Positions 18,544-60,134 of a DNA stretch of 64,000 bases are shown piece after piece. The position numbers were made by a program, and so were the translations under genes. The first letter of the stretch is position 1; each line of letters starts with the position of its first letter. A model generated the notes under the pieces. That model was not told the origin of the DNA. It made no database searches and worked only from the letters and a program-made list of their open reading frames with translations. Origin of the DNA: an uncultured Candidatus Saccharibacteria bacterium (lineage in GTDB: Bacteria > Patescibacteriota > Minisyncoccia > UBA6257); assembly GCA_964479005.1 (NCBI GenBank), contig CAYZJA010000001.1:224001-288000 (forward strand), read 5' to 3'.

Positions 18544-18990
18544 TTATGGAAATATCCAATTGAGCAATTTGGTTTCTATCTTTTCCCGTAGCACAATGTT
18601 TTGAATTTTACCTATCAGCGAATTTTGAGAAAAAATGCATCCGTCAATCCTGGTTGCCTGACAAATAATTGCTCTCATCGGCTGTCTATAAATCTCCTTT
18701 GGATGTAAAAATTGATAATCGGATAATTTTATTATTTCATTTACTTTATCCTCGTAAAGCTTAGTTTTAGATAAGGGAATAGCAAATGCCATACTCTGAG
18801 ACCAAAAAGATTGATCCAGCCAAAGTATAATCGGTCTTGGTTTACCAATAACATTGCTCACTGTGTTATTTTGTCCGCAATAAGGACAAGAATAATTTGT
18901 AATAGAAAAATCCCTGCAACAGCGCGGATTAGAACATTTAATTGTTTCCGGAAATCTAGATATATAAATAATATCCCATTTGTGAAACAT
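18544..18990 (-). CDS. Uncharacterised Zn-ribbon protein, candidate toxin partner of the Panacea-domain gene
   Basis: A CSNPRCC...CPYC Cys4 cluster is present. The gene lies 4 nt downstream of the DUF4065 gene on the same strand. Confidence 0.45.
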   Translation of the reverse strand: MFHKWDIIYISRFPETIKCSNPRCCRDFSITNYSCPYCGQNNTVSNVIGKPRPIILWLDQSFWSQSMAFAIPLSKTKLYEDKVNEIIKLSDYQFLHPKEIYRQPMRAIICQATRIDGCIFSQNSLIGKIQNIVLREKIETKLLNWIFP

Positions 18991-18993
18991 ATT

Positions 18994-19521
18994 TTAAAAT
19001 GGCAAATCTTCTTTTTCTTCCGGCTCTGATTCCGTTTTTTTTGCAACATCCAAAATATCGTCCCTTTTTGATTCTTGAACAATTGGAAGTTTATAAACTA
19101 TATCAAGCAAATTTTGAAGACTAAGATTACCAAATGAATCAACGACTTCATCAATTATTAATAATTTTTCAGGGCCGAGCGATTTTAATAACTGTTCTTT
19201 TATAGAAACTTCCTTTTTTAAATAATATCTGGTATAGGATTTAGTTTCCTTTCTAGTTAAAGGAAACTTCTTTATTTCAATATACCCAATGTTAGAAAGA
19301 TGATTAGTATAATTGTCTAATTCTACTGTAAACGGGCCGTGTAAATATTTTTTGTATTCCATCACGGTAATTTTTTCTTTTAATCTCCGCATTGCTAAAA
19401 TATCACTCAAAAAAAGTAATTTTTGAAGATGGGTTTTACCGAGAATACCATCTAATCTTGAAATCAAATAAAAAACCACTGCGAGAGTATCTTTATCTAA
19501 CTTAGCTTCGCTTTTGACCAT
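18994..19521 (-). CDS. Panacea domain (DUF4065, SocA/GepA-like) antitoxin-like protein
   Basis: The KTHLQKLLFLSDILAMRR segment matches the conserved Panacea core. The protein is 175 aa. Confidence 0.65.
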   Translation of the reverse strand: MVKSEAKLDKDTLAVVFYLISRLDGILGKTHLQKLLFLSDILAMRRLKEKITVMEYKKYLHGPFTVELDNYTNHLSNIGYIEIKKFPLTRKETKSYTRYYLKKEVSIKEQLLKSLGPEKLLIIDEVVDSFGNLSLQNLLDIVYKLPIVQESKRDDILDVAKKTESEPEEKEDLPF

Positions 19522-19603
19522 AATATTGAACTTTCTTTATTTTAAGTATAGCCTAAAAAGAAAGTCAAGTAAACAAACCAGTAATAACTTTTCTTTCATA
19601 GAT

Positions 19604-19915
19604 TTATTTATTTTGCTCTTTCTTCGCTGAATTAAAAATATTAGCTTCTATCTTTTTCATTATTCTTCCGCCAATAGATATATAAACGATAAAGGCTAAA
19701 ACAATTGTTGTGATTCCAGCTATCCAAGAAAAAATAAAAAACGTAGTAATAATTAATATAATCCCTAAGATAATAAGGGAATTATTCCAAATCAAAACAT
19801 TTGGTTTTTTAGATAGAATCTTCTTGGACCAAGTATTATTAACAGTAATATAGGCAATAATCAATATTGATCCTAACAATAGTAAATAAAAGATATTTCC
19901 AAAAAATTCAAACAT
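19604..19915 (-). CDS. Small membrane protein
   Basis: Three hydrophobic helices are present. No domain was recognised. Confidence 0.45.
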   Translation of the reverse strand: MFEFFGNIFYLLLLGSILIIAYITVNNTWSKKILSKKPNVLIWNNSLIILGIILIITTFFIFSWIAGITTIVLAFIVYISIGGRIMKKIEANIFNSAKKEQNK

Positions 19916-20034
19916 AGATTTATTTTAACTTCTTTCGCCACGCCTAGTACCCATTGTTTATTCTACCAAAAAATCGCCTCTTTGGCGATTTCGATGTATC
20001 TCGGTCCCTCGATAAAAAAACTAGACGGCTGGGG

Positions 20035-20729: not shown

Positions 20730-20821
<92 letters not shown>

Positions 20822-20876: not shown

Positions 20877-21266
20877 TTAAATTTTAATCTTGCTAGCGTA
20901 TTTTCCTAAAACAGGTAATTCTTTTGTTTTGTCTCCTAAAACATTAATAATACCCACAATAGATAATATTATCCATAACAAGCTAGCTAAAGGAGCAATA
21001 ATCCAACCAAGAAAAGGAATTGCAGCGACAAAAGCTGTTATTACTTCAGCAATAAAAAGGACTAATCCTTGTTTAGCGTGAAAGAAAACAAATTCGTCAT
21101 CTTTCTTTGTTAAAAGAGGGATAAGGCATAAAACTCCAATATAGCTTAAAATAGCTATTAATTTATTATCCTCAGCTTTTTTAGGAGCTTGTTCTGGTGT
21201 TTCTGGGGTAGATGTTTGTTCTGGGGCTTGTTCTTCTAAAGGTTCTTTTTGAATATCTTCGTCCAT
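20877..21266 (-). CDS. DUF4870-family membrane protein
   Basis: ILSYIGVLCLIPLL and HAKQGL motifs are present. An acidic low-complexity N-terminus precedes them. Confidence 0.65.
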   Translation of the reverse strand: MDEDIQKEPLEEQAPEQTSTPETPEQAPKKAEDNKLIAILSYIGVLCLIPLLTKKDDEFVFFHAKQGLVLFIAEVITAFVAAIPFLGWIIAPLASLLWIILSIVGIINVLGDKTKELPVLGKYASKIKI

Positions 21267-21396
21267 AATTTTAATTAATTTTGTTAAATTTTTTATTTCG
21301 ACCTCATAAACATTTTAGCAAATTTTTCTTATTTTGTCATTAATATTAATTAAATAACAAATAATAACTAACAATTAAAAATATAAAATTTCTCAA

Positions 21397-21590
21397 GAAG
21401 CAAGTATTTGCTCCTGAACGACATTAGTGGAAGCAGAGATACAAACAAATGAAACGAATGATAGGGAAAGCCGAAACTGGAGCGGAGCCACGTTTGACGT
21501 GGCGGAGCGGAATTTCGGAAGGCTTCCAGAGCGAGTGAATATTGTTTGTCTCTGCTGGAATGCAGGAGAGAAGGGGGAAATACTTGCTTC
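21397..21590. repeat. F1 rod-like palindromic repeat element, copy A (~195 nt)
   Basis: The termini GAAGCAAGTATTTG and CAAATACTTGCTTC are complementary. Nested internal pairings include CTCCTG/CAGGAG and GCAGAGATACAAACAA/TTGTTTGTCTCTGC. The apex is a GCCACGT-TTG-ACGTGGC hairpin. The element is about 85 percent identical to 34154-34353. Confidence 0.6.
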
Positions 21591-22474
21591 TACACATCCA
21601 TTTGTCTCAAAGCCTTTACCCTTTCTTCTATAAGAGGATGAGTCATCCAAAGCTTGCTTACTGCTTTTTTTCTAAAAGGATTAGAAATAAAAAGATGGCT
21701 TGTCGCATTTGAAGCAACTCGTAAAGGATTTGGATCCTGAGAAATTTTCTCTAATGCACGTGCTAATCCTTCTGGATAGCGAGTTAAAAGCGCTCCTGAA
21801 GCATCAGCTAAGAACTCCCTTTTTCTTGATATGGCTAGTTTGAGTAAAGTAGCTGCTAAAGGCGCTATAATAGCGGCTACGATGCCAATTACCAGCATAA
21901 TAAGACCTAAATTACCTTTACTATCTCTATTTCTTCTTCCCCAAAACAAAGACCTGAAAAGCCAATCTGATAATAAAGCAATCATACCAACCAAAACCAC
22001 AACTACTGAGGATAAAAGAATATCACGATTGCCAATATGAGCTAATTCATGAGCAATAACTCCTTCTAATTCAGATTTTTCCAATTTATCTAATAATCCT
22101 TGCGTGACACAAACAACCCCGTGTTTAGCATCTCTCCCAGTGGCAAATGCATTAGGAGAAATATCATCAATAATATAAATCTTCGGCATTGGCAATCCAG
22201 CTGTAATAGAAAGATTTTCCACTATCCTGTATAATTCTGGATTATCCTCTTTTTTTATTGGTTTTGATTTAGTTAAAGCAAGAATAATTTTATCAGAATG
22301 CCAATAACTGGAAAAACTCCAAAATACACTAAAAATAACAGCAATATATAAAATCAACAACGATTCAAAAATATAACTAAAAACCCATCCTAAGGCAATA
22401 ATTAATATCAAAAAAACCGTGATTAAAAACCACGTTTTCCGAATATTAGAATCGACTTGTGTGTAAAGAGTCAC
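21590..22474 (-). CDS. htpX: Zn-dependent protease HtpX (M48)
   Basis: An HELAHIGNRD zinc motif is present, with multiple TM helices and an M48 layout. Confidence 0.9.
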   Translation of the reverse strand: MTLYTQVDSNIRKTWFLITVFLILIIALGWVFSYIFESLLILYIAVIFSVFWSFSSYWHSDKIILALTKSKPIKKEDNPELYRIVENLSITAGLPMPKIYIIDDISPNAFATGRDAKHGVVCVTQGLLDKLEKSELEGVIAHELAHIGNRDILLSSVVVVLVGMIALLSDWLFRSLFWGRRNRDSKGNLGLIMLVIGIVAAIIAPLAATLLKLAISRKREFLADASGALLTRYPEGLARALEKISQDPNPLRVASNATSHLFISNPFRKKAVSKLWMTHPLIEERVKALRQMDV

Positions 22475-39563: not shown

Positions 39564-39566
39564 ATG

Positions 39567-39641
39567 TGCCGTCACCGGGATTTGAACCCGGGTTACATGG
39601 ATGAGAACCATGCGTCCTAAGCCGAACTAGACGATGACGGC
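39567..39641 (-). tRNA. tRNA-Glu (anticodon CTC), CCA not encoded
   Basis: The minus strand reads GCCGTCATCGTCTAGTTCGGCTTAGGACGCATGGTTCTCATCCATGTAACCCGGGTTCAAATCCCGGTGACGGCA. The acceptor, anticodon stem CATGG/CCATG and T-arm CCGGG-TTCAAAT-CCCGG all pair. Confidence 0.8.
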
Positions 39642-59794: not shown

Positions 59795-59940
59795 GGATGG
59801 GTTTTAATTTTTATGCTTATATTTACTGGCTGGAAACACAAAGCTCCCCGCCAACGACAACCTTTCGGTCGCCCTATACCTTTCGGTATAGACCCATCCC
59901 TGAGCTCTGACGAGGAGCTTAATATCAGGGATGGGTTTTT
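59795..59940 (-). promoter_or_regulatory. Structured leader upstream of the methyltransferase with three AGGGATGGGT sites
   Basis: Two direct copies (59797, 59927) and one inverted copy (59891) of AGGGATGGGT are present. Minus-strand hairpins include CTATACC-GAAA-GGTATAG and a long stem ACCCATCCCTGA/TCAGGGATGGGT. Confidence 0.45.
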
Positions 59941-60134
59941 TATGCCATATCCTATATTAGAACTTAGGCAACTTTGATTATTTAGTTTTTACAATTAAAG
60001 AATAACATAAATTGATAAAAAGGGAAGCAGAATTGTACCCTCGTTAATTATATTAATCAATCACCATTTTAGCTTTATTTAGTCATATTTTATTGCTAAA
60101 ATAGGGTTGAATAAGACATAATTATATTATTTAT

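Follow-up and report, generated by a model that had tools for sequence, protein, structure and literature searches.

A Panacea-linked gene pair in a Candidatus Saccharibacteria contig encoding a predicted MazF-fold toxin candidate with a zinc-ribbon insertion

A stretch of 64,000 nucleotides from an uncultured Candidatus Saccharibacteria bacterium (contig CAYZJA010000001.1 of assembly GCA_964479005.1, positions 224,001 to 288,000; hereafter referred to as the window) contains two adjacent minus-strand genes, panA and panT. The upstream gene, panA, codes for a protein with a Panacea domain, and the downstream gene, panT, for a small protein with four conserved cysteines. An earlier annotation of the window (the original prediction) had proposed that the two form a toxin-antitoxin module whose toxin does not belong to a known class. 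Our analysis indicates that, as judged from its homologues, panA-panT is a conserved, portable type II toxin-antitoxin module of the PanAT kind, with predicted toxicity of PanT and predicted neutralisation by PanA. Overall, we consider it probable (about 0.7) that the pair is a PanAT operon in which PanT, a MazF-fold probable endoribonuclease with an inserted zinc ribbon, would be toxic by virtue of its RNase activity and would be neutralised by PanA.

Organisation and recurrence of the panA-panT pair

Both open reading frames (ORFs) of the original prediction were found on the minus strand of the window, with the peptide strings quoted for them. The genes are co-directional, panA lying upstream and panT downstream. 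The panA ORF (19521..18994) encodes 175 amino acids, its 18994 end including the stop codon, and the panT ORF (18990..18544) encodes 148. The panA stop codon, TAA at 18996-18994, is followed by the three nucleotides AAT and then by the panT ATG at 18990, in a common frame. The distance of four nucleotides given earlier thus agrees with a 3-nucleotide spacer, the start of panT being the fourth nucleotide past the panA stop. The peptide GKTHLQKLLFLSDILAMRRL corresponds to residues 28-47 of PanA, and PanT carries the cysteine pattern C19-SNPR-C24 ... C35-PY-C38. No compositional anomaly was detected in the pair, its GC content (~0.30) being the same as that of the surroundings.

Searches for relatives revealed two very small families. 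A word-indexed search of 5.8 billion proteins recovered 15 clusters of PanT sequences (49-100% identity) and a similarly small number, 19 clusters, of the PanA subfamily. An exhaustive hidden Markov model (HMM) search of 1.84 billion representative sequences recovered only 19 clusters for PanT, all of them members of the same family or fragments, and no ribbon-less or bridging relatives of PanT were present among these representatives. Among 185,579 species-representative genomes, PanT was found in only two hosts, one Candidatus Nealsonbacteria and one Candidatus Collierbacteria, both of which are lineages of the candidate phyla radiation (CPR). Two further complete panA-panT loci came from metagenomes. 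No panT relatives were found on viral contigs; a phage origin of the pair, which we considered and set aside, is not supported by this result or by the weak fold matches in the viral structure library BFVD described below.

The linkage of the two genes is strict. Upstream DNA was available for 13 distinct loci (the window and the loci that we designate L001/L011, L003, L005, L006, L007, L008, L012, L013, L014, L015, L017 and L018). At every one of them a panA gene of the same subfamily is located directly upstream of panT, on the same strand and with a gap of 0-10 nucleotides, while the genes flanking the pair are unrelated between loci. Constant pairing in differing surroundings is characteristic of a portable module of two genes. 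The neighbourhood analysis of homologues suggested in the original prediction thus speaks for the pair: the prediction was to be abandoned if homologues of the downstream protein never occurred together with Panacea genes, and members of one PanA subfamily adjoin panT throughout. Since the four cysteines are invariant in the 18 PanT family members compared and the pair recurs in 13/13 loci, these features are not due to chance.

The assignment of the 175-residue protein to the Panacea family was borne out by comparison with Pfam. PanA matches SocA_Panacea (PF13274, formerly DUF4065) with 46.7 bits (E 6.9e-12), well above the gathering score of 25.7, and the alignment covers positions 1-108 of the 113 positions of the profile. 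The same domain was detected in every PanA subfamily member found, apart from one 127-residue fragment, and the G-K-T-x-L-Q-K motif is invariant in the 18 subfamily members aligned. Weak matches were also obtained in PADLOC, to PDC-M19A (E 2.6e-6) and DarG (E 3.4e-3), and PHROGs gave matches to two families of unknown function. An AlphaFold model of PanA built with these 18 sequences (predicted local distance difference test score, pLDDT, 80.4) consists of a helical globule of winged-helix-like character and, after it, a tail whose residues 164-175 have a pLDDT below 50. No recognisable helix-turn-helix add-on was found in PanA, which, on its sequence, appears to be a stand-alone, single-domain Panacea protein. 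Its C-terminus has conserved properties despite the predicted disorder: over the last 25 residues the net charge lies between -3 and -9 in 18/18 subfamily members, the chain ends in the motif ..[DE]-L/I-x-F or ..D-[IV]-L, and a leucine upstream of this motif, L157, is invariant across the subfamily.

Predicted fold, zinc ribbon and candidate active site of PanT

Searches of Pfam, NCBIfam, PADLOC and PHROGs with PanT gave nothing significant. Read by eye, the protein has the pattern of a hydrophobic β1 strand, a cysteine-rich segment, a β2 strand with K-x-R-P-hydrophobic, and the motifs I-P-L-S and Q-x-T-R-I-D. The AlphaFold modelling proposed in the original prediction was carried out with an alignment of 15 sequences. 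The resulting model (pLDDT 79.4, predicted template modelling score 0.72) is composed of seven strands and a C-terminal helix and has the SH3-like β-barrel with C-terminal helix that characterises the CcdB/MazF fold. Its first two strands, residues 6-18 and 47-58, make up a long β-hairpin with the cysteine segment at the tip.

Comparison of the model with known structures pointed in one direction. The ten best matches were all MazF/Kid endoribonuclease chains, with scores from 11.3 to 8.7, the nearest being MazF-mt3; they were followed by CcdB (8.4), CptN (8.2) and ToxN/AbiQ (5.8 to 5.2), and the next unrelated fold scored 4.0. In BFVD, PemK-like endoribonucleases were on top as well, with weak scores. 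With residues 17-45 excised, PemK_toxin alone among the Pfam families had matches in two or more PanT members (3/18, best E 5.8e-4, below the gathering score), and with full-length sequences PemK was matched, also below threshold, in 2/18. The model matches, together with the PemK matches in the viral library and after excision of the ribbon, argue that PanT, as predicted by the model, has the MazF/PemK fold, with a Cys4 zinc ribbon built into its β1-β2 hairpin. The claim that the partner of PanA falls outside the known toxin classes is not supported: the predicted fold is of MazF type, and pairs of PanA with PemK- or MazF-like proteins have already been published (PMC8832971).

The inserted segment has the hallmarks of a zinc ribbon. 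Cys19, Cys24, Cys35 and Cys38 are invariant in 18/18 PanT sequences (conservation counts for PanT are all based on 18 sequences of the family, with identities as low as 30%). The spacing within the first knuckle ranges between CxxC and Cx4C; in the second it is CxxC, with a single member having CxC. Weak matches to zinc-ribbon families were obtained among PanT members, to HypA in 11/18 and also to Zn_ribbon_3 and DZR. We regard the Cys4 segment as a candidate zinc ribbon that would bind zinc; in the model an ordered module of ~30 residues takes the place of the β1-β2 loop of MazF. No report of a MazF/PemK protein with a zinc-ribbon insertion was found in the literature searched. The RAZR protein (PMC13017515), which came up in these searches, combines a zinc finger with a HEPN domain and has no relation to PanT.

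Besides the cysteines, the invariant residues of PanT include W5, P14, K50, R52, P53, F69, I71, P72 and W145. Position 74 is occupied by Ser in 17/18 members and by Thr in the remaining one. A side observation concerns a metagenomic PanT homologue at L017 1169-1621, in which Leu replaces Pro72, invariant in the other sequences (..FAILLSAS..), and the R-P pair and the cysteines are retained. In E. coli MazF the catalytic pair used for comparison is R29 and T52, and in the B. subtilis enzyme it is R25 and T48. A forced global hhalign alignment with the ribbon excised, which was itself not significant, placed R52-P53 of PanT on R29-P30 of E. coli MazF, S74 on T52 and Q111 on Q77, and the strand order of the PanT model agrees with this register for R52 and S74. 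In MazF, general acid/base catalysis falls to the Arg and stabilisation of the transition state to the Thr, and cleavage is lost when these residues are replaced by Ala (PMC10893535, PMC11394972). Arg52 and Ser74 are thus candidates for the corresponding positions of PanT.

Several observations weigh against the assignment of PanT to the MazF fold and of these residues to its active site. Searches of PDB sequences with phmmer and with profiles were negative. The PanT of the window does not match PF02452 (threshold 23.1 bits) either with or without the ribbon. The hhalign comparisons of the PanT family with MazF were not significant (E 0.2-0.8); the family was aligned either with MazF of E. coli, the one sequence verified (identical to PDB 3nfc_A), or with a set of four from MazF and Kid. 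The fold itself comes from one predicted model built on a shallow alignment of 15 sequences, and the equivalence of Arg52/Ser74 with Arg29/Thr52 of MazF follows from register and conservation rather than from measured geometry. Homology of PanT to PF02452 is therefore best described as probable and not established at the sequence level.

Possible mechanism, alternatives and surrounding DNA

The two genes are probably co-transcribed from a promoter located ~20-45 nucleotides upstream of panA and are probably translationally coupled. PanT would most likely be an endoribonuclease that works independently of the ribosome and stops translation through RNA cleavage, with Arg52 as general acid/base and Ser74 stabilising the transition state in the manner of Arg29 and Thr52 of E. 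coli MazF. The rigid Cys4 ribbon of ~30 residues would replace the flexible β1-β2 loop that in MazF dimers is situated near the active site and the groove for the antitoxin; we infer for it a role in RNA recognition, in docking of PanA, or in both.

PanA would neutralise PanT through direct binding. In the mode that we prefer, the disordered acidic tail of PanA with its hydrophobic end would fill the basic RNA-binding groove of PanT, and the globular Panacea domain would serve as a scaffold or sensor. The isoelectric point of PanT is ~9 in 14/18 members, which complements the acidic tails of PanA. MazE, PemI and Kis fill the groove of MazF with acidic, disordered C-termini, and by analogy the PanA tail appears to resemble tails of the MazE type. 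It may also be likened to the appended elements through which other PanA proteins act by 'linear neutralisation' (PMC10440598). The same study counts against the tail mode in one respect: stand-alone Panacea domains can neutralise via the globular domain itself (PMC10440598).

A main role of the module in abortive infection or phage defence would be compatible with this mechanism. PanA would sense a phage cue and free the RNase PanT, and Panacea has been put forward as a sensor (PMC10440598). By simple count, 5/10 homologous loci with enough flanking DNA (L001 2029-3279, L003 1693-4386, L005 5841-10018, L006 5510-6358 and L014 1-2412) have restriction-modification or helicase genes within 5 kb of the pair. 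They code for N6_N4_Mtase with Mrr_cat, an MmeI-like type IIG enzyme and N6_N4_Mtase with ResIII/DEAD, and in L005 a PIN/MazE-like pair is present as well, together with a CopG-like gene. The adjacency to restriction-modification or helicase genes hints at residence in defence islands of CPR genomes, and the weak resemblance of PanA to PDC-M19A and DarG counts in the same direction. Against it, the surrounding genes in the window seem to be of the housekeeping type (ExoIII-like, PNPOx, DnaQ-like exonuclease, tRNA-Ser, HtpX-like and LemA-like), the search of viral contigs returned no relative, and there is no known trigger. We regard a primary defence function as possible, at well under even odds. 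We are more doubtful of a bolder proposal, in which the ribbon could dock the toxin on a structured RNA (tRNA, rRNA or the ribosome) or could be the means by which a Panacea sensor gates the active site, making the pair a distinct, CPR-specific PanAT subtype, possibly one for phage defence.

PanT could instead have the MazF fold and yet be non-toxic or catalytically inert, acting for instance as a regulator that binds RNA or DNA through its ribbon; the pair would then not count as a toxin-antitoxin system. Binding of nucleic acids is common among zinc ribbons, the toxicity of PanT is a prediction, and several predicted PanT proteins, a MazF-like one from Flavobacterium among them, were non-toxic in E. 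coli (Kurata et al., PMC8832971 supplement). However, a passive protein would hardly account for the strict architecture of two genes, Panacea partner and short spacer maintained in unrelated contexts at all 13 loci, or for the conservation of the expected catalytic positions, and we consider this explanation improbable. A poison of DNA gyrase similar to CcdB, or of another non-RNA target, is less probable again. CcdB has the same SH3-like barrel, and on this view the conserved C-terminal ..N-W-I-F of PanT would take the part of its W99-G100-I101. The match of the model to CcdB is nonetheless lower than that to MazF RNases, no CcdA partner is present, and the conservation of R-P and Ser/Thr favours an active MazF-type RNase over a gyrase poison of the CcdB type. 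Finally, a type III toxin (ToxN/CptN/AbiQ-like) with an RNA antitoxin and PanA as an accessory is effectively refuted, because Tandem Repeats Finder (minimum score 30) detected no arrays in 18200-20000; its structural scores are, in addition, below those of MazF, and the protein partner is invariably present.

The coordinates of the pair and of other features of the window are collected in Table 1. The promoter-like site upstream of panA, TTGACT-18-TAAAAT (-35/-10, 19568..19539), has 10/12 matches, and such sites are as numerous in the region as expected from shuffled sequences. It is bracketed by the perfect 9-nucleotide inverted repeat ACTTTCTTT / AAAGAAAGT, whose arms are 18 nucleotides apart (19530-19565). 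No conserved counterpart of the repeat was found upstream of panA in 11 other loci. Because promoter matches are at shuffle level and the repeat is not conserved, an operator is only a possibility.

Table 1. Features of the panA-panT region and further RNA features of the window (positions in the window)
Feature	Position	Strand	Description and basis
panA	18994..19521	-	175-residue antitoxin candidate: N-terminal helix, Panacea domain and C-terminal tail
Panacea domain core, PanA residues 32-144	19090..19428	-	Pfam alignment; G-K-T-x-L-Q-K motif
C-terminal acidic tail of PanA, residues 150-175 (..EDLPF end)	18997..19074	-	proposed toxin-neutralising linear element, predicted function
panT	18544..18990	-	148-residue toxin candidate, predicted MazF/PemK-type fold with inserted zinc ribbon
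Cys4 zinc-ribbon insertion, PanT residues 17-46 (Cys19, Cys24, Cys35, Cys38)	18853..18942	-	candidate ribbon at tip of β1-β2 hairpin
Codons Arg52-Pro53 of panT	18832..18837	-	proposed catalytic Arg, counterpart of E. coli MazF Arg29-Pro30 at start of β2; conservation and register
Codon Ser74 of panT	18769..18771	-	proposed counterpart of E. coli MazF Thr52 at end of β3 (I-P-L-S vs V-P-C-T); conservation and register
Promoter-like site and 9-nucleotide inverted repeat upstream of panA	19530..19568	-	possible operator, tentative
tRNA-Ser(GGA)	20732-20821	-	~1.2 kb upstream of the module
Candidate structured RNA	21395-21590	-	intergenic
tRNA-Glu(CTC)	39566-39641	-	further from the module
LOOT RNA motif	59856-59970	-	Rfam RF03000

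Two RNA features of the window were noted apart from the module and the tRNA genes. The intergenic stretch between an HtpX-like ORF (21590..22474) and an ORF for a 129-residue membrane protein (20877..21266) is C/U-rich and has a GC content of 0.40 vs ~0.30 around it. Its predicted fold has a minimum free energy of -72.7 vs -49.5 +/- 4.3 kcal/mol for shuffled sequences (z -5.4), with a 13-bp closing stem around ~195 nucleotides. It had no Rfam match at the gathering score, nor any at E<=1 other than a chance one to a long non-coding RNA, and we list it as a candidate for an undescribed structured RNA. The second feature is a full-length match to the LOOT RNA motif, a small RNA of unknown function, with 72.1 bits vs a gathering score of 46.4.

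Comparison with known toxin-antitoxin systems

The kind of system described here is already known, because pairs of PanA with MazF-like PanT have been published and validated (PMC8832971). Kurata and co-workers listed PemK among the PanT domains (Kurata et al. 2022, PNAS, PMC8832971), and entire clusters of their dataset, pT5 and pT6, consist of MazF-like PanT proteins (PMC8832971). The PanT proteins of Pseudomonas moraviensis (cluster pT6) and Bifidobacterium ruminantium gave no CDD hit, but HHpred showed them to be MazF-like; both inhibit protein synthesis, and each is neutralised by its own PanA (PMC8832971). As in those EndoA/PemK/MazF-like PanAT pairs, a Panacea gene in the window stands immediately upstream of a gene for a small toxin candidate with a predicted MazF fold that domain databases miss and that only structure or remote-homology methods pick up. 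Unlike them, the present PanT has no detectable sequence link to other families, and the published PanT proteins differ from it by their descriptions: 'zinc', 'ribbon' and 'Patescibacteria' have 0 occurrences in the text and supplements of PMC8832971.

The differences from the classical MazF/PemK/Kid toxins (PF02452; MazF-mt3 8zws, MazF-mt1 6kys, S. aureus MazF 4mzm, Kid 1m1f) concern both partners. In PanT a predicted Cys4 ribbon of ~30 residues stands where those toxins have a flexible loop, and its sequence similarity to them does not reach family thresholds. As its antitoxin, the module has a Panacea protein, whereas MazF, PemK and Kid use MazE, PemI or Kis, which are of AbrB or ribbon-helix-helix type. 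MazF-mt3, the nearest structural match, belongs to a subgroup with long, disordered β1-β2 loops (PMC11394972), and β1-β2 loops of MazF influence antitoxin binding (PMC10893535, PMC11394972). DarG of the DarTG system (PDB 7yk3) has an N-terminal macrodomain and an ADP-ribosyltransferase partner, in contrast to PanA, which stands alone and is paired with a predicted MazF-fold protein. The gyrase poison CcdB of the F plasmid is a weaker match to PanT than the MazF RNases are; PanT keeps Arg-Pro and Ser/Thr and is found without CcdA.

We conclude that PanT is not a new toxin class and that the pair is a rare variant of the PanA-MazF combination. What is new is the zinc-ribbon insertion, the extreme rarity of a family with no sequence link to others, and the fact that both named hosts are CPR bacteria. 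The catalogue of toxins paired with the hyperpromiscuous Panacea antitoxin is thereby extended to uncultivated CPR bacteria, a useful result that will not surprise the specialist, as the logic of PanA combined with a MazF-like RNase is already in print. It adds a candidate MazF-fold toxin in which the regulatory, substrate-contacting β1-β2 loop appears to have been exchanged for a folded zinc ribbon. Because this loop adjoins the active site as well as the antitoxin groove in the MazF proteins studied, the PanT variant can be viewed as a natural experiment on the specificity and neutralisation of MazF.
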